A stretch of DNA of 45,511 nt from a virus (Duplodnaviria; Caudoviricetes), in IMG/VR virus record IMGVR_UViG_3300027693_000008, positions 1-45,511 of that record; one strand, given 5' to 3'. The notes under the pieces were generated by a model that searched no databases, was not told the DNA's origin, and saw nothing but the letters and a program-made list of their open reading frames with translations. Both the position numbers and the translations under genes were made by a program. How positions within the stretch are numbered: the stretch's first letter is position 1; every line of letters starts with the position of its first letter. Of this stretch, positions 5,562 to 45,108 are shown in pieces.

Positions 5562-7420
<1,859 letters not shown>

Positions 7421-9364
7421 TTACTTGTGAGTAACCTTTTCCTCAAAGAAGCGATAGTTGTTTTGATAGTGTGGGTCGGTTGGATTGAGCTTTAGCGCCT
7501 CTCCCGAATACACGCGCCCCTCTTCGTATCTCTGTTGCTTCCACAGACAACGGGAAAGAAGCTCGTACACCTTCGACATATCTGTCTGCGAGTAGCCCGC
7601 CTCTTTCTTGATCTCTAGGGCAAAGTGGAGGCAGCCAGCGGCAAGGTCAAATGCCCCGCGAGAGAAGTAGGATTCAGCCAGCGTGTACCACCAGAAACGG
7701 TTGTTGGGGCGGCAAGAGCAGGCACGATAGATCCAACTCTCGTATTCGTGAATGATCCCCTTCGACTTGTAACAGACAGCCAACTCGAAGCAGGCATCGG
7801 CGGCATCCCAACCGCGCGGAGATGCCTCCATGTACTTCTTGAGTGTGTCGATGGCCTCGTCAACACGATTGAGATAGCGGTACTGCCTGCCGAGATAGAA
7901 AACCTGTCGCGCCGATCCAGTCTCTTGCACGTCGAGGATGAGGCGGTCGAGCGTGTACTGTAACTTCCAAGAGTTCCGCTCTTTCGGTTGACGATGCTCG
8001 AAGACAAAGTTAGTGAACTCGGTCGTCCCAGTGACAATCGGAAGTTCATGCGCCCGATAGCGATACTCGCACTTGCCCTTTCGATAGGCGCGGACTTGGT
8101 CCCATGCCATCGTCCCGTTTCCGCTTGCGTCTACATTCGTGATACGTATTGAAACGGCATCGGCAGTAGAGGACAAGAGATGCTTCCGTAACCCCTCGGG
8201 CCAGGCAATCCTCTCGTCTGCATCGAGGACAACGATCCAGTCTCCCGTTGCCTCAGACGCTACCTGATTGCGCGAGCCACCCTTGTTCATTCGGTCGCCG
8301 CCAAGAATCACTCTCGCGCCAAGTGACTCAGCCACCTGGACGGAGTTGTCTTCCGATCCCGTATCGAGGATCACGACCTCGTCGGCTAGGCCCGCCGTAC
8401 TGTTGATTGCCCAGGGGAGAAGAGCTTCCTCGTTGCGGACAATCATGCAGACTGAGACGCGCCCGGTTTGCCTTTCCATGTTATTGTGCAATTCAACTGC
8501 CGCATTGCACAGTTCGATGAACTTTTCCGCTACTACCTTGGGCGCGTGATGCTTTGCAAGGTACTTGCGCCCAATCTCCGCCCACTTCTGTCTCTCTTCT
8601 GGATGGTCGCGGAAGAGTTCGACGGCGGCACGGATCTCCTCTTTCGTGTTTGCCCTGTAGTATGGCAGATAGCCGACCGCCTTGACAATCTCGGCCTCAA
8701 TCTCGGGCGGGGCATAGGAGATAACCGGCATACCAAGCGCCCATGCCTCAAGGGAGTTCGTCCCGTACCCAATCGCTAGGTCGCCAACTTGGTCAATGTA
8801 GACACTGGCCTTCGCCTTGCGCTTCAGGCATTCTTGATACGGGGTTCCCTCTACTATGTCGAGAGTGACCCCCGCAACCGATTGCAGGGCGTCTACGATT
8901 GATTGTGTGCCCTTCTGTAGCCTCTTGGTAGGGGCGTGGCAGACGATGAACCCTTCAGGGCAATATCCTTCCGATAAGTCTTCCTGCGCCCGCCCATTCC
9001 AAATCGGGCCGAAGAGTGACAAATCCTGCGTGAGACACGTTTGAACGTGGCCTGAATGCTTTTCATTCACGGCCTGATGGTTTTGTCGATACCAAGTGCC
9101 GTGGTAGGTGTAAATGATCGGCTTGCGCGTGACATTCTCCGGGATCAGGCTATCTGCATCGTCATGGATGTCCCAGACATCGGCCCAGTCAAGCAACTCC
9201 CTCAGTTGCTCTACATTCGGCGCGACAACGTCAACTGGATACTGCGTCCAGTATTGATCCATGGCCACTTGTCGCGCATGGTGTTCTGTGTTCTCGTTGA
9301 TCGCCCGGCACCTTGCGTTACCGGCCCCACTCCAATCCCCCCGCGCAAGAATCAGAACGTTCAA
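7421..9364 (-). CDS. multidomain glycosyltransferase (GT-B/GT4-like + GT2 + TPR)
   Basis: HAP..R..KGT and G.NSLEAWALGMPVI (GT-B); SVCMIVRNEE, DTGSED, LDADE, HE (GT2); C-terminal TPR helices (FYLGRQY, ACFELA). Confidence 0.9.
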   Translation of the reverse strand: MNVLILARGDWSGAGNARCRAINENTEHHARQVAMDQYWTQYPVDVVAPNVEQLRELLDWADVWDIHDDADSLIPENVTRKPIIYTYHGTWYRQNHQAVNEKHSGHVQTCLTQDLSLFGPIWNGRAQEDLSEGYCPEGFIVCHAPTKRLQKGTQSIVDALQSVAGVTLDIVEGTPYQECLKRKAKASVYIDQVGDLAIGYGTNSLEAWALGMPVISYAPPEIEAEIVKAVGYLPYYRANTKEEIRAAVELFRDHPEERQKWAEIGRKYLAKHHAPKVVAEKFIELCNAAVELHNNMERQTGRVSVCMIVRNEEALLPWAINSTAGLADEVVILDTGSEDNSVQVAESLGARVILGGDRMNKGGSRNQVASEATGDWIVVLDADERIAWPEGLRKHLLSSTADAVSIRITNVDASGNGTMAWDQVRAYRKGKCEYRYRAHELPIVTGTTEFTNFVFEHRQPKERNSWKLQYTLDRLILDVQETGSARQVFYLGRQYRYLNRVDEAIDTLKKYMEASPRGWDAADACFELAVCYKSKGIIHEYESWIYRACSCRPNNRFWWYTLAESYFSRGAFDLAAGCLHFALEIKKEAGYSQTDMSKVYELLSRCLWKQQRYEEGRVYSGEALKLNPTDPHYQNNYRFFEEKVTHK

Positions 9365-25689: not shown

Positions 25690-26091
25690 CTACGAAGTGT
25701 GGTAAACGAGAGCGCCAATCCCCGACAGAGTCGCCGAGAACGTCCCAGACGAATCAACAGCAGTCGTCGGACTAATGGTTACGACGGTCGCACTCCCAGA
25801 GAAGTAGATCGTCCCAGTCTCGTTGATGTAGAACTTCACTTCCGACTGTGCGCCAATAGCAGTCCACAGCACATTCCATTGGGTTGAGTTATCGCATTGA
25901 CCCTCAACCGTTCCAGACCAAGACTTCAGTCCGCCAACAGTAGTCCGCCAGCCAGTATCTCCGAATCCTGTGGTGTCAACCTCTTCAGCATTGACATCAA
26001 CAGACCAGGTTCTAACCTTGGAATACTCCAGCGGCGAACCACCGCTCGCAGCGATGTAGAAGGCTCCATTAACGCCACTAACAGCAGCCAT
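25690..26091 (-). CDS. major tail tube protein, copy B
   Basis: WSVD...EEVDTT.FGD.GWRT.VGGLKSWSGT.EG tail-tube signature. Confidence 0.85.
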   Translation of the reverse strand: MAAVSGVNGAFYIAASGGSPLEYSKVRTWSVDVNAEEVDTTGFGDTGWRTTVGGLKSWSGTVEGQCDNSTQWNVLWTAIGAQSEVKFYINETGTIYFSGSATVVTISPTTAVDSSGTFSATLSGIGALVYHTS

Positions 26092-26100
26092 GGTCCCCTC

Positions 26101-26502
26101 CTACGAAGTCGTGTAAACCAATGCACCAATGCCCGACAGCGTTGCCGAGAAGGTGCCCGAAGAATCAACGGCAGTCGTCGGACTGATCGTTACGACAGTA
26201 GCAGACCCGTCAAAGTAGATCGTCCCGCCTTCAGTAATGTAGAACTTAACCTCGACTTGCTCGCCGATGTTCTCCCACAGAACGTTCCAGCCGGTCGATC
26301 CATCACACTGGCCCTCTACAGTCCCCGACCAGGACTTCAATCCGCCGACAGTCGTTCGCCATCCGGTGTCACCGAATCCGGTGGTATCAACCTCTTCTGC
26401 GTTGACATCCACGGACCAAGTACGCACCTTGGCGAACTCGGCAGGCGTGCCGCCCGTATCGGCGACGTAGAACGCCCCATTCACTCCGCTTACAGCGGCC
26501 AT
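26101..26502 (-). CDS. major tail tube protein, copy A
   Basis: Same signature; 116/133 aa identical to copy B by manual alignment. Confidence 0.85.
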   Translation of the reverse strand: MAAVSGVNGAFYVADTGGTPAEFAKVRTWSVDVNAEEVDTTGFGDTGWRTTVGGLKSWSGTVEGQCDGSTGWNVLWENIGEQVEVKFYITEGGTIYFDGSATVVTISPTTAVDSSGTFSATLSGIGALVYTTS

Positions 26503-29198: not shown

Positions 29199-32100
29199 CT
29201 AATCCTCGTAAGTAACCTCGAACTCGACCGCCCAAATCGGGTTGTTGGTCGAGCCTGTGTCGTTCGTGACACAGATACCGATGAGGTCGCCCGGATCGGC
29301 TGCGATGGCCGTCCCCAGCGTGAACTTGTCGTTCAACTGGGATGCCGTCCAAGTCTGCGCCGCCGAGAACACCATGTCCGTGAAGTTGCCGACGATGAAG
29401 ACGATGGCCTGGTCGTGAACCGTCGCGTGCATGTTCGTCACGCGCACCTTCGTGATCTCCAGTTTGAACGGAGCGGAGAAGGTGTCGGCGTTCGGGATAG
29501 CGATGAACGGCTCGTCATGGTTCGTGCCGTCAATCAGCGGCGTCTGAGTCAACTGCGCCGCCGTGATGACATACTTGACCCAATACGCGGCCTGCCCATC
29601 GTAGGTTGCCGTAACCCAATCGGCGGGCGGAACGAACGTAATCGCCCCGGTGCGCTGCAAACTGCGCAGCCCGTCATAGGCCGTCAAGTCAGTATTGTCG
29701 AAAACCGTTAGATCAGACCACGTACCAGCGCCTGTGCTATACTGCCACTTAGCGCCATCGCCGCCCCAAGTCGCCAGCGCACCAGCCGCCGTTGCCAGGT
29801 CGTCAAACACGACCTCGCAGAACTTGGTAGCGAAGCCAACAGCGAACGCATCGCCAGCCTCTTCGGCATCAGCGTCAGGGAGCAACTGATAGTTAGCAGC
29901 CCAGTCCGCGCCAGCCGTAAGCAGCGCCGACGTAGCGAGAGCGTCCCAGGTCGTTGTGCCAACGTCATAGACAAGCACGAAGACATCATCCGTAGCGTTC
30001 GTGTAGGTGTGCGTCGTGATGTCAGGCGCTCCACCAACAAGCCCACCGCCATTCGTCCCTGCGCCGTCCGTGTCCTCGCCGCGTAGCCCGCCCGCAAACG
30101 GAAGGGTCGTGGTAAAGGTGTTCGTCACAAGGAAGTCAGCCGTGACGTCTACAAAGTCCGGGATATTGATCGTCGGCAGAGTCGCCGTCTGGTTATCCGA
30201 ATCGACAATCACGTCCTCGCTGCCATCGTCAACAATGAAGGTATCCGCTTTGACTGGGCTCGCTGCATCAATCGCATGGTCCCATCCGGCACCAATCGAG
30301 ATGAAATCTTCGACCGCTGCCGTGCCCGTCATTGCGCCAGCGCGAACACCATAGGTGCTGACAGTATCGTCACCCGTAATCGCAGCAACGTCAATCAGCG
30401 CCAGAGCGTTCGTGCCGTTCGTGGCCGCACCAATCGTCGGAGCGAAGTAGATACCACGATAAGTGCTCGTGGCCCCACCCGTCGCATAGATCGGAGTCGT
30501 GAACGTGAGGTCAACCAGGTTGACCGTGTTCGTCACCGTCGGAATTGCTACCGTCGGACTAATGTCAAAGAAGATCGAGGTTGGAGTTCCGCTCGCATGA
30601 ACCGGCACCGAACCCGTGATCGAGGCGTAAGTCATGTTCGACCCAGCCGCAGCATCGAGAGCATCAACGACAAGCCCAACACCAGCCGTACCGGTCGAGA
30701 TCGTGGCCGACGTTGCCGCAGTGAACGCCAACGTGCCGACAGCCTCGTCAATGACAAGGTCGCCAACCGTCATGGTGTCGTTTACATCGGCGTCGTCCGT
30801 TGATGCCAGGTCTTCCGCCGACAGCGTTGAACTCGACACAAACGGAGAGGCAAGGTCGATCGCTCGATCCCAGCCAGTACCGATTGAGATCCCGTACTCG
30901 ACTCCGGCCCCAGCCGTCATCGCTCCAAGCCGCATACCATAGATGGCAACAGAGTCATCGCCAGTAATCGCAGCCACGTCAAACAGCGCGACCGTGTTCG
31001 TCCCGGCACTCGCATTCCCAATCGTGGGGGCAAAGTAGAGGCCACGGATCGTGCTAGTAGCCCCGCCAGTAGCCCATGCAGGAGTCGTGAACGTCAAGTC
31101 CGCGAGATTGACCGTTGTGTTGACGGTGTTGATCCCGAACGTCGGGTTGAAATCAAGGAAGATGTCCGTCGGGGTTCCAGCAGCATGAGTCGCCTGCGTA
31201 GCCGTCATCGACAGTACAACGCTATTCGACCCAGACGCTGCCATGGTCGGCTGAATGTCAATTCCAGAGCCAGCTGTCGTGTTCTGAATGTCTCCGCCAT
31301 CAATCGTAATGTCAGAGTCAATCTGTAGCGCGCCAGCCGTTGTCAGCGTCAGAAGTTCCGTGGAATCATTCGTCAGCGAGAAGTTGTTGCCATTCGCCAC
31401 CGACTTGATGAACCACGAATCAGCCGCATCGCCGCCCGCATCAGCATCGAGCAAGATCACCGCATCCGAGGTCGTGTTATGGTCAGCCCCAACAATCGTA
31501 ACTTGCGCCCCAGTAGCATCGTCCGAAGTGATCGTTACGACACCGTCTGAAGCGTTCGCAATTGCCTCATCGTTCGCCAGAATGACCGACGCCTGAACGT
31601 CAATGGAGCTTGCCGAGTTCAATCCGATGTCCCAGCCAGCGCCAATCTCAATAGCGTTCTCCGTAGCGCCAGTCCCAGTCATCGCACCAAACCGCAAGCC
31701 ATAGAGGCTCACCTGCGCATCGCCAGTGATCGCCGCCACGTCGACAAGGGCAATCGTATTCGTCCCGTTCGTCGCAGCACCAACCGTAGGCGCGAGATAA
31801 ATACCGCGCAAGGTGCTCGTTGCCGCACCCGTTGCCCATGCCGGGCTAGTGAAGGTAAGGTCAATGAGATTAGCCGTCGCCGTGGCCGTATTGATGCCCA
31901 GCGTCGGTGTGATGTCTAGGAAGATGTCCGTAGGCGTTCCACTAGCATGGGCCGGAACAGACCCAGTGATTGACACATAGGTCTGCGACGTTCCAGCCGC
32001 AGCATCGCCCGCATCGAGAACAATGTCTCCGCCAGCCGGAGTAACAACCGTCAGAGATGTTGCACTCCCGCCCGCTACAAGACGAGCAGCCGTCGTGCCC

Positions 32101-32504
32101 GAGAAGTCCAGGCTGACATAGCTCGATCCCGCTAGGTTTTCGACAAAGAACGTCGGCTCGACAACGCTGTTGAAATACGCAAAGTCGGCATCTGCACTAA
32201 CGATACCGAAGACAGGAACATCAACGGCCCCGCCAGTGGGCAGATCGACAATCAGGCAGTTTGCGTTAGCGTCTGCCGTAGTCCACTCGATAGAAACCGG
32301 CTTCCCGGTTCCGCCAAACGAAAGATCGATGTCGTCAGGAATCGTGAACGATCCCGTCGAGTCAATCAACGTTACTTCCGACCCAGACTCACCGAATCCC
32401 AGGGCCTCAGTGACGGAAAGCGCCGTGAAGTGCGTCCATTCAGTCGCTGACACCGGGAGCGCGAGTAGGGCCAACGCCAAAACGAGGAAAAGAATCCTCT
32501 TCAT
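29199..32504 (-). CDS. large acidic Ala/Thr/Gly-rich repeat protein with signal peptide (putative head fibre or surface protein)
   Basis: MKRILFLVLALALLALPVSA signal; three roughly 125-aa internal repeats; directly follows the capsid gene. Confidence 0.7.
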   Translation of the reverse strand: MKRILFLVLALALLALPVSATEWTHFTALSVTEALGFGESGSEVTLIDSTGSFTIPDDIDLSFGGTGKPVSIEWTTADANANCLIVDLPTGGAVDVPVFGIVSADADFAYFNSVVEPTFFVENLAGSSYVSLDFSGTTAARLVAGGSATSLTVVTPAGGDIVLDAGDAAAGTSQTYVSITGSVPAHASGTPTDIFLDITPTLGINTATATANLIDLTFTSPAWATGAATSTLRGIYLAPTVGAATNGTNTIALVDVAAITGDAQVSLYGLRFGAMTGTGATENAIEIGAGWDIGLNSASSIDVQASVILANDEAIANASDGVVTITSDDATGAQVTIVGADHNTTSDAVILLDADAGGDAADSWFIKSVANGNNFSLTNDSTELLTLTTAGALQIDSDITIDGGDIQNTTAGSGIDIQPTMAASGSNSVVLSMTATQATHAAGTPTDIFLDFNPTFGINTVNTTVNLADLTFTTPAWATGGATSTIRGLYFAPTIGNASAGTNTVALFDVAAITGDDSVAIYGMRLGAMTAGAGVEYGISIGTGWDRAIDLASPFVSSSTLSAEDLASTDDADVNDTMTVGDLVIDEAVGTLAFTAATSATISTGTAGVGLVVDALDAAAGSNMTYASITGSVPVHASGTPTSIFFDISPTVAIPTVTNTVNLVDLTFTTPIYATGGATSTYRGIYFAPTIGAATNGTNALALIDVAAITGDDTVSTYGVRAGAMTGTAAVEDFISIGAGWDHAIDAASPVKADTFIVDDGSEDVIVDSDNQTATLPTINIPDFVDVTADFLVTNTFTTTLPFAGGLRGEDTDGAGTNGGGLVGGAPDITTHTYTNATDDVFVLVYDVGTTTWDALATSALLTAGADWAANYQLLPDADAEEAGDAFAVGFATKFCEVVFDDLATAAGALATWGGDGAKWQYSTGAGTWSDLTVFDNTDLTAYDGLRSLQRTGAITFVPPADWVTATYDGQAAYWVKYVITAAQLTQTPLIDGTNHDEPFIAIPNADTFSAPFKLEITKVRVTNMHATVHDQAIVFIVGNFTDMVFSAAQTWTASQLNDKFTLGTAIAADPGDLIGICVTNDTGSTNNPIWAVEFEVTYED

Positions 32505-42181: not shown

Positions 42182-42258
42182 TGGGGCGGTCGGCGAGGAT
42201 CGAACTCGCGTCTCTGGGATCACAGCCCAGCGTCTTCGGCCACTAGACAACGACCACC
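42182..42258 (-). tRNA. tRNA-His(GTG)
   Basis: G-1, acceptor GTGGTCG/CGACCGC, D arm, CTGGG-CTGTGAT-CCCAG anticodon arm, GCGAG-TTCGATC-CTCGC T arm, C73, encoded CCA. Confidence 0.95.
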
Positions 42259-42334: not shown

Positions 42335-42668
42335 TGGTGGAGGCGTCGGCATCCGAGAGCCGAGTCTTGCTACGGTCCCGCTAACGGCACTACGAGCGTA
42401 GTCCGCTGTTAGTGTCGCAACCGTTAGGCTACGGACGGCCACGGTTGCTATCGCGTATCCGGCCACGATGGCCGGATTCATTGCCGGTTTCGCCTACGCG
42501 CAGACTAGAACCGGGCTGCCAACTTCAGTGACGCCGTTCCCAAATACGTTGGCAATCTTCGAGACAGCGCCCCGCACAAAGGCGAGGAAGGTGTTCTTAG
42601 TGTTCACACTTGTTGTGTGGTTGCTCGCACCACTAGCGTTCTTCGCGCAATCGATCCCTGTCGCCCCC
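42335..42668 (-). ncRNA. ssrA: tmRNA
   Basis: 5' GGGGGCG pairs with 3' CGCCTCC-ACCA with G3:U alanine wobble; TCGA D-loop; GAC-TCGGC/GCCGA T arm; long helix 2 pairing; internal tag ORF ending at 42494. Confidence 0.9.
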
Positions 42669-42723
42669 AATCTCGTAATCGTTCCCGTTTTGGTTACAAG
42701 CGTACCCGAATCGGGAACGCCGC

Positions 42724-42912
42724 CTAGACGATTGGGTAATTGCTGATCTCCAGCGGCCCACAATGCAAGAGCCAGAATCCAGGCTCGCGCCAGATAAACG
42801 GCCTTAGAAACAGACACTCGCGGCAGAAACACCAGTGAACCCAGTACCGCCCAAGCCGCCAATGCCGAAGACCATAGAAAGCTACTGGCGGGCGCAAAAC
42901 AATCTCTCCCAC
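42724..42912 (-). CDS. small aromatic-rich hypothetical protein
   Basis: ORF track; overlaps the resolvase 3' end. Confidence 0.35.
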   Translation of the reverse strand: MGEIVLRPPVAFYGLRHWRLGRYWVHWCFCRECLFLRPFIWREPGFWLLHCGPLEISNYPIV

Positions 42913-43172
42913 TCGTCCAGCCGCATCACCACTAACGGCCCACGCCTGTTCCTCTTCACAAACAGCGCCTTGTTATCCCCCAGCCACTCCCACAGATACT
43001 CCCCAATCGACTCGCGGTTCTTGGCTTCGCACAGACCAAAACCAGCAATCTCGATGTCTCCAGGCTCATTCGGATCTCCGCCTGACAGAGGAATGCGGCG
43101 AGCGTTGATGCCATGGGCACGGAGATGGGCCACAATATCGTGTTCCAGTCTATATCCTTTCGTTCGGCTCAT
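42882..43172 (-). CDS. Hjc-like Holliday junction resolvase (PD-(D/E)xK)
   Basis: SRTKG...E, R.PLSG, GDI, EAK motifs; ATGA overlap. Confidence 0.85.
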   Translation of the reverse strand: MSRTKGYRLEHDIVAHLRAHGINARRIPLSGGDPNEPGDIEIAGFGLCEAKNRESIGEYLWEWLGDNKALFVKRNRRGPLVVMRLDEWERLFCARQ

Positions 43173-43687
43173 TCTCCCTGGCACTTCAACACCGCCCTCG
43201 CCAGCCGCTCATAGAAGTCTCGCGGGACTAGCGTATAGTTCATGTGCCCCGCGAGTGCTTCCGCCACCTCGAAGTCCACCCACTCATTGCAGAGACGATG
43301 CCTGTCCGCATCAAACTCATCCTGCATCGCCTCAACTTCATCCTCTAATGCTTTCGCAACTCTGGCAACATCTTGTGGCGATTCGTCTACACTTGTTGGC
43401 ATCTGTGCGCGTCTTGCCACGCTCTCCGTCACGAACCGCGCCATGTCTCGCGACCGACGCCACGGAAGGCGGAACTTGTCGTGTAGGATGCGCTCGATCT
43501 CCCACGGTCCCCTCTCGTCCCCCGCCATCCTCCATGCTATTCTCCACGGCGCGAGAACATCGTTGCGGAATGGTATGTCGTCATACGCATCTGGGGGCAC
43601 CGCCCTGTCTCCTCTTCGCAAGGCCGCAATCTTGCCTCGCGGGCTACGGAAACAGTTAAAGGGCAACCTCCGTAACGTTTTGCCCAT
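43169..43687 (-). CDS. hypothetical protein
   Basis: GAGG RBS; operon packing. Confidence 0.6.
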   Translation of the reverse strand: MGKTLRRLPFNCFRSPRGKIAALRRGDRAVPPDAYDDIPFRNDVLAPWRIAWRMAGDERGPWEIERILHDKFRLPWRRSRDMARFVTESVARRAQMPTSVDESPQDVARVAKALEDEVEAMQDEFDADRHRLCNEWVDFEVAEALAGHMNYTLVPRDFYERLARAVLKCQGE

Positions 43688-43877
43688 TTCGCCTCGCCTT
43701 CAGCCCGTTTCTCATAACCGCCCGCCAATCAGGATCGCCAGAAGGCAGATTCAGAAACTGAGGATCAACCGGGAGCGGATCGCCATCTTGTACCATGCAG
43801 TCACACTCTCTTACCCATGGGGCAAGACTCTTCCCGCATCGAGGGCAGATCCAGCCATATTCTTGCGCCACTTGCAC
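43656..43877 (-). CDS. zinc-finger-like protein (GWxCPxCG...CDC)
   Basis: YGWICPRCGKSLAPWVRECDC. Confidence 0.7.
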   Translation of the reverse strand: MQVAQEYGWICPRCGKSLAPWVRECDCMVQDGDPLPVDPQFLNLPSGDPDWRAVMRNGLKARRNGQNVTEVAL

Positions 43878-43887
43878 CTCAACAATT

Positions 43888-44061
43888 TATGCGGTTGGCC
43901 CGATTACAGCCGGGTAAAGCGCACACTCTGCCGCAAATACCCAACCATCCCGCGACCGCTGCATAGGCACGGGCCGAGCGGGGCAGATACTGTCTGGAAC
44001 CTAGTGTCGTGGTATCTCCAGACGCACAGCGATCACACTCACGCGACACCGCAACCGCACA
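43888..44061 (-). ncRNA. unassigned multi-pseudoknot structured RNA
   Basis: 10-bp closing stem TGTGCGGTTG/CAACCGCATA plus several internal helices paired by hand. Confidence 0.55.
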
Positions 44062-44067
44062 ATCTTC

Positions 44068-44176
44068 GATGGCCGGTCAGTCCCGCCCTGACTTGTCTAT
44101 GGCGCGGGCAACGCCGCCTAGACGTTCTCCCAAGTTGCCCAATTGGGGTGCTTCATCTCGCAGCACCGCAGCCATC
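44068..44176 (-). ncRNA. unassigned cloverleaf-like RNA with loop-loop complementarity
   Basis: Closing stem GATGGCTG/CGGCCATC, four arms, GGGCAAC/GTTGCCC loops. Confidence 0.6.
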
Positions 44177-44260
44177 TAGCTGACGATATAGGAGCGTGTA
44201 CCCTACACGGCCTACACGGGCAAGTCTCACACGGATGGACCCGAGTTTCGTCGTCAGCCA
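44177..44260 (-). ncRNA. unassigned three-way-junction RNA
   Basis: Closing stem TGGCTGACGA/TCGTCAGCTA starting about 10 nt after a TATAAT box. Confidence 0.5.
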
Positions 44261-44269
44261 TCTCTTGAT

Positions 44270-44299
44270 ATTATACCACACTACACCGCTCCCTGTCAA
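44270..44299 (-). promoter_or_regulatory. sigma70-type promoter with extended -10
   Basis: TTGACA-N18-TATAAT, TGTGG before -10. Confidence 0.85.
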
Positions 44300-44606
44300 G
44301 TCCCAACAAACATCCACTTCAGGTACACCGCGAGCGCAGCCAGGAAGATGAGCCACAGAAAAACGTTCACGCCTACCCTTCTTCTTTCCCCCGTCCCTCT
44401 TGGCCCTCGTCTACCTTCTGCTCGCGCATCTCAGACTTTCTCGCCAGCCAGCTATGACACTTACCGTTCAGCCTACACTTACGACATCGCGCTTCGTCTT
44501 CACAGAGGTCTTGTGGCAAGGGAGCCTCCAAATTCACTTAGACCGCCGTCTCCGCATCCTGCACCTAAGCCAGATGTCAAAACGAATGACCAAGTACCAC
44601 ATGCGG

Positions 44607-45022: not shown

Positions 45023-45108
45023 GTGGCGGCTGGCCGGGCTTGATACCGACTTACTATGCCTAGCAACCAGCGTTGGCTGTGCGTGTCCTTCCACGCCGCA
45101 GCCGCCAC
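45023..45108 (-). ncRNA. tRNA-like RNA lacking a normal anticodon loop
   Basis: 10-bp terminal stem, D-like arm, 4-nt-loop anticodon-like arm, variable arm, 5-bp T-like arm; begins just after the promoter. Confidence 0.65.

Follow-up and report, generated by a model that had tools for sequence, protein, structure and literature searches.

A conserved, uncatalogued phage RNA with two covarying stems and a predicted pseudoknotted core

ROOL and GOLLD RNAs are phage-encoded, lie near tRNA genes, are pseudoknotted and have no known function; many GOLLD RNAs are longer than 800 nt (PMC12286853). T4 rnaC and rnaD (species 1 and 2) are adjacent small RNAs of about 138 and 118 nt, which are transcribed serially and whose function is likewise unknown (PMC9697503, PMC12685909). 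The raiA motif (RF03072), which is chromosomal and occurs in Bacillota and Actinomycetota, is about 113-250 nt long, has a closing P1, a conserved pseudoknotted core and variable peripheral stems, and acts in trans (PMC12968392). Theta/HDV-like ribozymes are small pseudoknotted RNAs in phage tRNA regions, with cleavage at a tRNA 3' end, an HDV fold and a catalytic C in J4/2 (PMC10879173), while the GIR1 lariat-capping ribozyme (RF01807, a model of 201 positions) has a double-pseudoknot core, a downstream mRNA and a eukaryotic intron context (PMC2219692). These descriptions follow the accessible parts of the papers cited, here and below.

The element described here lies in a stretch of 45,511 nucleotides (the window), a 45.5-kb virus record of 59% completeness whose terminase, portal, tape measure and tail fibre genes are those of a tailed phage; capsid relatives of this phage carry labels from bins of unrelated taxa. 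In kind the element resembles ROOL, GOLLD and T4 rnaC/rnaD, and in design raiA, and it belongs to none of them. Like ROOL and GOLLD, and like ornate phage non-coding RNAs of tRNA islands generally, it is phage-encoded, non-coding and conserved in structure, with tRNA and tmRNA genes nearby, although its knots are predicted, it is far smaller and no sequence similarity was found. As for T4 rnaC/rnaD, the element region has no blastn match among the cultured phages and plasmids searched, and its proposed fold is not among the descriptions in the accessible parts of PMC9697503 and PMC12685909. In raiA, PK1 is formed between the P3b loop and the P5-P6 linker (PMC12968392, accessible part), whereas the strand order of the element is different. 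Its predicted helix H crosses helix B, so that the raiA architecture (P3 loop PK1, nested P4 and P6) could not be fitted by hand even after circular permutation. The RF03072 model gave no match to the element at E<=10, a cut-off that no control genome passed either. Compared with theta/HDV-like ribozymes, the element is larger, has its ends paired in P1 and is not at a tRNA 3' end, the closest predicted tRNA gene being 1.6 kb away; membership was rejected on this distance and on the lack of an Rfam match. GIR1 is similar in size, in its double-pseudoknot core and in having a downstream mRNA, but RF01807 gave no match and the P3-P7/P3-P15 core, the P8 junction and the P7 G-binding pocket, as given in the accessible part of PMC2219692, could not be mapped by hand on the element's strand order.

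That the RNA could not be matched to any family, as the initial annotation had said, holds for Rfam 15: cmscan of 43850-44300 gave no match at E<=10, the whole window gave only tmRNA and tRNA, and the copy of the element in a second phage gave none. Rfam did not confirm supposed resemblances to glmS, hatchet, raiA, GIR1 and pRNA. The searchable supplement files of PMC10690425, part of that set of viral structured RNA candidates, hold no match (its archived alignments lie outside this search). Text searches of the open literature gave no paper with the motifs and none that describes the RNA.

The element is on the minus strand, in an accessory region upstream of the terminase gene. Read along that strand, the order is promoter, two stem-closed units, element, three small genes, tmRNA and tRNA-His. 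The coordinates of these features and of the helices are collected in the table.

Table. Features of the RNA cassette and helices of the element. Element numbering is n = 44062 - window position.
Feature	Window position	Element position (n)	Strand	Remarks
RNA gene (element)	43888-44061		minus	174 nt in window; 153-155 nt in homologues
Sigma-70 promoter TTGACA-18-TATAAT	44270-44299		minus	12/12 consensus; upstream of RNA cassette
Motif 2, second uncatalogued RNA	44179-44258		minus	first unit after promoter; in all three phage records
Third stem-closed unit (AUGGC...GCCAU)	44099-44175		minus	between motif 2 and element; closing stem predicted from sequence; common to L153
Phage tmRNA	42335-42668		minus	downstream of element, same island; G002 has one too
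tRNA-His(GTG)	42182-42257		minus	predicted tRNA gene
P1 closing stem	44052-44061 with 43888-43897	1-10/165-174	minus	8/10 pairs invariant, one G-U to G-C
Helix A as first listed		12-18/53-59	minus	GGTGTCG/CGACACT
Helix A, conserved part	44044-44049 with 44004-44009	13-18/53-58	minus	5' GUGUCG with CGACAC; crossing; partner in loop of C
Helix H	44038-44041 with 43975-43978	21-24/84-87	minus	5' YGRG with CUCG; crossing; 2/4 pairs vary on one side, stay paired
Helix B	44025-44035 with 43953-43963	26-37/99-110 as first listed, extends to 25/111	minus	
Stem C	43992-44023 (44017-44023 with 43992-43998)	39-45/64-70	minus	loop carries 3' strand of A
Helix D		46-50/72-76	minus	GATAC/GTATC; crossing in initial annotation
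Helix E		75-80/130-135	minus	TCTGCC/GGCAGA; crossing in initial annotation
Helix F as first listed		87-92/160-165	minus	GGCCCG/CGGGCC
Helix F, conserved part	43970-43974 with 43898-43902	88-92/160-164	minus	5' GCCCG with CGGGC; crossing; 5/5 invariant
Variable stem-loop G	43906-43948	116-124/146-154 as first listed	minus	11 bp in window
Invariant central segment	43965-43982		minus	candidate short helices K and J
Candidate helix K	43979-43982 with 43949-43952		minus	compatible in 4/4 sequences; tentative
Candidate helix J	43965-43968 with 43999-44002		minus	compatible in 4/4 sequences; tentative

A conserved 17-mer pattern has three matches in viral contigs and gives two homologues: L003, which is in phage record G001, and L005, which is in G002. 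Scans of viral contigs with another three patterns (53, 86 and 43 matches) led to the same two alone after profile screens, and one earlier pattern scan gave none; all are exact-pattern scans, by which diverged members are missed. In metagenomes, 4 of 16 matches are homologous, three being copies of known ones and the fourth, L153, a near variant, while none of 55 matches in bacterial and archaeal genomes is homologous. The covariance model R1 found nothing in five capsid-related records nor, with G001 as positive control, in eight motif-2 records; these are mostly small fragments. Seven loci that looked structured (L147, L150, L151, L155, L159, L160 and L189; six from metagenomes, one from a Steroidobacteraceae genome) were rejected as chance matches: they have no score in the profile screen and lie in a divergent promoter region, flanked by genes which, from their translations, we take to encode a ROK-type kinase and a glycogen-phosphorylase-like protein. 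At about 2400-2620 in four of them (L147, L150, L155 and L189), this divergent intergenic region of Steroidobacteraceae-like genomes holds an apparently covarying long stem of its own, without an Rfam match and unrelated to the element RNA.

The divergent lineages of full length number only three. G001 is 63-74% identical in nucleotides to the window over long gene matches, and G002 is distant, with a terminase 24% identical to that of the window and few other proteins in common. In the element, 89 (L003) and 87 (L005) of the 94 core columns are identical to the window, and 123 and 115 of 153 positions overall. The immediate flanks are unrelated, and the upstream and downstream neighbours differ in all three phages. 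Part of the element is present in five of the seven sequencing runs compared, out of 16 runs (X5, X6, X7, X8 and X14); X3 and X4 hold only its flanks, with uninformative contig gaps. In X7 the flanks are unlike beyond 43890 and 44063, where similarity stops, X8 and L153 have insertions at the 5' boundary (44061/44062), and in X4 the upstream units run into different sequence. These sharp boundaries mark the element as a discrete cassette.

A 56-codon GTG frame (43879-44049) spans the element, but coding is excluded, since L005 is out of step by 2 nt and run contigs have indels of 1 nt; this bears out the view of the initial annotation that there is no credible open reading frame. Judged from the aligned sequences, the element is conserved, modular and non-protein-coding, is read from the minus strand and has stems C and G paired.

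Stem C carries compensatory changes. Its pair 40/69 is U-A, C-G and A-U across the three lineages, its pair 42/67 is U-A, A-U and U-G, and a contig of the metatranscriptome X6 repeats the L003-type double changes; a helix of this length at the same place has a shuffle p of 0.001 in L003 and 0.004 in L005. Stem G is replaced wholesale. In L003 and L005 it has 6 bp and a loop, UGAAAGAU or UGAAAAAU, that resembles a T-loop, and two of the six pairs are double-changed between these homologues (shuffle p about 0.07 each). In helix B, pair 30/106 is U-G, C-G and U-A in the three lineages, with one mismatch in L005. Over 41 pairs, L003 has two double changes, four single changes that keep pairing and none that breaks it, and L005 has one, five and one, so that 12 of the 13 changed pairs are still paired. 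Since the one-sided changes pass through G-U, which is allowed on the minus strand only, they fix the strand as minus.

All 16 strands of the eight helices first proposed are present on the minus strand at 43888-44061, and some are mutually exclusive, as had been suspected: D overlaps E (75-76) and F overlaps P1 (165). Their density, taken at the time as a sign of a catalytic or scaffold RNA, is near chance and alone proves little, because as many helices are present in 250 of 300 shuffles. The fold separates only in part from shuffled controls: the minimum free energy has a z of -1.55, with 15 of 200 shuffles as stable, while the greedy helix set with crossings allowed scores -109.5 against -91.8 +/- 8.4, with 6 of 300 shuffles as good. 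The multi-pseudoknot fold is supported only in part. P1, A, B, C, F and G are kept in the homologues, but helix E has no 3' strand in L003 and L005, and helix D is broken in L005 and in X6 and X14 run contigs. Helix H, absent from the first list, is added here.

The weak folding statistics, together with the very high core identity and the sharp boundaries, are what would be expected of a recently swapped DNA cassette without selected RNA structure. This reading is very improbable: it is largely refuted by stems C and G, which have diverged and are still paired, and it is further opposed by G-U tolerance on one strand only and by the dedicated promoter in G001. The first proposal of a structured minus-strand RNA is upheld by these same compensatory changes, by that promoter and by conservation against unrelated flanks, and the element is almost certainly a real, uncatalogued RNA family of uncultured phages.

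The crossing helices are less directly supported than stems C and G. Covariation among homologues, named as a check at the outset, bears out these two stems, but for P1, A, H, B and F jointly it is not significant; 28 of their 36 pairs are without variation, and a covariation score at least as high is obtained in 375 of 500 shuffles. All six pairs of A are invariant in four sequences. Pseudoknots A, H and F are therefore given here as predicted, plausible and likely. Alternatively, the RNA might have a nested fold only (P1, B, C and G), the invariant segments being contacts with protein or RNA that are read as sequence; this is quite unlikely. Compensatory change is confined to the nested helices (one-sided in P1), and 71 helices of at least 4 bp are compatible with all four sequences, for which reason J and K are also tentative. 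One X6 contig (15 differences, two of them unlisted) alters two bases of the 3' strand of A; the change at base 55 is tolerated, and base 54 is mismatched unless 17 is also changed. However, the bases that could pair with GUGUCG, CGACAC, are exactly those kept in an otherwise variable loop, and H still pairs after two one-sided changes.

The order A-H-C-A'-C'-H' would form a nested double pseudoknot. The lengths of the linkers would bring P1, A, H and F together in a single compact core and let C fold back along B, giving a predicted fold of a compact pseudoknotted core plus two interchangeable outer stems. The combination of an invariant core with free peripheral stems points to a partner, or else a tertiary site, that is fixed.

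Five X6 contigs, with at least three variants, cover 43953-44062, and X6 contigs extend 49-66 nt beyond the 5' boundary; they suggest expression, while strand, ends and RNA or DNA origin are not readable from contigs. In G001 the -10 box of a sigma-70 promoter reaches as far as 1080, which leaves about 6 nt to P1, so the element RNA can begin a transcript. Transcription from a sigma-70 promoter would yield a stable RNA of 150-175 nt. In the window the element would come third in a cassette transcript, and in G002 it comes directly after motif 2. No terminator was found after it in the window or G001. The differing neighbours, the missing terminator and the P1-paired ends fit a tRNA-like life cycle, in which the RNA would be transcribed serially, trimmed by host nucleases, guarded at its ends by P1 and stable.

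The first unit of the cassette, motif 2, has a closing stem and the consensus GA...CGG...CCGUGUGRG...CUCCYAUAUC. Ten of 21 pattern matches looked homologous (L298, L279, L278, L280, L288, L290, L291, L292, L294 and L295), and in nine aligned sequences (window and eight of these loci) both bases are altered in 9 of 19 predicted pairs. In L280 the motif is inside a tRNA array, and the five loci scanned gave no Rfam match. Motif 2 is more widespread and covaries better than the element RNA. AUGGC begins cassette units at 44261 and 44175 in the window and at 7870 and 7751 in L228 of G002; two of the units close with GCCAU, suggesting a processing signal common to the window and G002 cassettes. The hairpin-like repeat CGUCUAGGCGGCGUU, at 44105-44132 in the third cassette unit and at 42711-42738 just upstream of the tmRNA, is a possible processing or protein-binding signal. 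In L228 a further GC-rich multi-stem unit lies upstream of motif 2 (7753-7872, minus strand), and a tRNA mimic resembling a tmRNA end is present at 8651-8720 (plus strand). A tRNA-like cloverleaf, with a non-canonical T-loop, follows a second strong promoter (45141-45113) at 45024-45108 on the minus strand of the window and was missed by Rfam and ARAGORN.

The initial annotation suggested that the RNA might be catalytic. A new self-cleaving or RNA-processing ribozyme would cut the RNA cassette or mature the downstream mRNA. The nested double pseudoknot and the near-invariant core, which includes strands without a proven partner, would suit such a role, and theta ribozymes beside phage tRNAs are a precedent (PMC10879173, accessible part). 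Against it, no Rfam ribozyme matches the element or its G001 copy at E<=10, P1 joins both ends so that an internal cut would leave the neighbours unfreed, transcription in G001 is predicted to start at the 5' end, so that cleavage there would release nothing, and, more weakly since only contigs are concerned, the X6 contigs run past the 5' boundary. A ribozyme is thus unlikely. The fuller form of this reading, a new class with a triple-pseudoknot core (P1/A/H/F) that is carried as a swappable cassette next to a second new covarying RNA family and processes either the RNA cassette or the downstream mRNA at its 5' end, is more doubtful still.

An equally unlikely role is that of a cis-acting leader of the small gene downstream, which would work as a riboswitch-like aptamer or as an operator bound by protein. 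In the window and G001 a GAGG ribosome-binding site follows P1 at a distance of about 10 nt, and in both the next gene encodes a small CxxC protein. However, these genes form no blastp pair and so are not homologous, and G002 lacks a gene start of this kind; inspection by eye showed no conserved anti-RBS pairing, nor was any terminator found. Neither the consistent class of downstream gene nor the expression platform of a riboswitch is present.

The large terminase gene is 2-5.4 kb downstream of the element in all three records, and phi29 pRNA is similar in length to the element RNA. Such a location could suit a pRNA-like RNA for packaging or virion assembly, in which the crossing helices would join separate molecules. 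This is extremely improbable, as there is no Rfam pRNA match and the window phage encodes a portal, a long tape measure and a large terminase of the ordinary kind. The large terminase gene of a close relative (L002, about 1820-2850) has an intein-like insertion of about 1 kb. At 25690-26502 and 29199-32504 the window has tandem paralogous structural genes, with a 1101-residue protein that has internal repeats and no family match.

The preferred reading, held with about even confidence, is that of a new family of stable phage RNA, about 150-175 nt long, that acts in trans via its compact core. The RNA would bind a protein or a part of the translation machinery as scaffold or decoy, and the scaffold role first suggested for it fits the evidence. 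tmRNA and tRNAs are near the element in two of the three phage records (window and G002), which favours action in trans on translation or defence; beside them it may serve translation support or counter-defence. In G001 neither was found in a record 58% complete, which weakens the link to translation. The window and G002 tmRNAs, the latter at L228 5910-6281 (minus strand), have long, similar candidate tags. Both were missed by ARAGORN; their candidate tag frames, with an inferred resume codon, have 36-37 codons, look amphipathic and end in VCA and FVFA. Between RNA cassette and tmRNA, the window (43169-43687) and G002 (6926-7174) encode, on the minus strand, a basic N-terminal domain of about 85 residues that is 48% identical and has no match in Pfam, PHROG or the atlas. 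Nothing supports this neighbouring protein as a partner of the RNA, and the G001 fragment lacks it.

New RNA folds that are both compact and knotted seldom come to light. The element has natural variants, sharp ends and, in one phage, a dedicated promoter, so its RNA can be synthesised and probed directly. Should it prove to be catalytic, it would define a new class of ribozymes. Besides the element, the 45-kb phage record holds a tmRNA and a tRNA as well as one or more further RNA families that are not catalogued, and the finding bears on the old question of what job is done by the stable RNAs other than tRNAs in phage tRNA regions, such as T4 rnaC/rnaD, ROOL and GOLLD.
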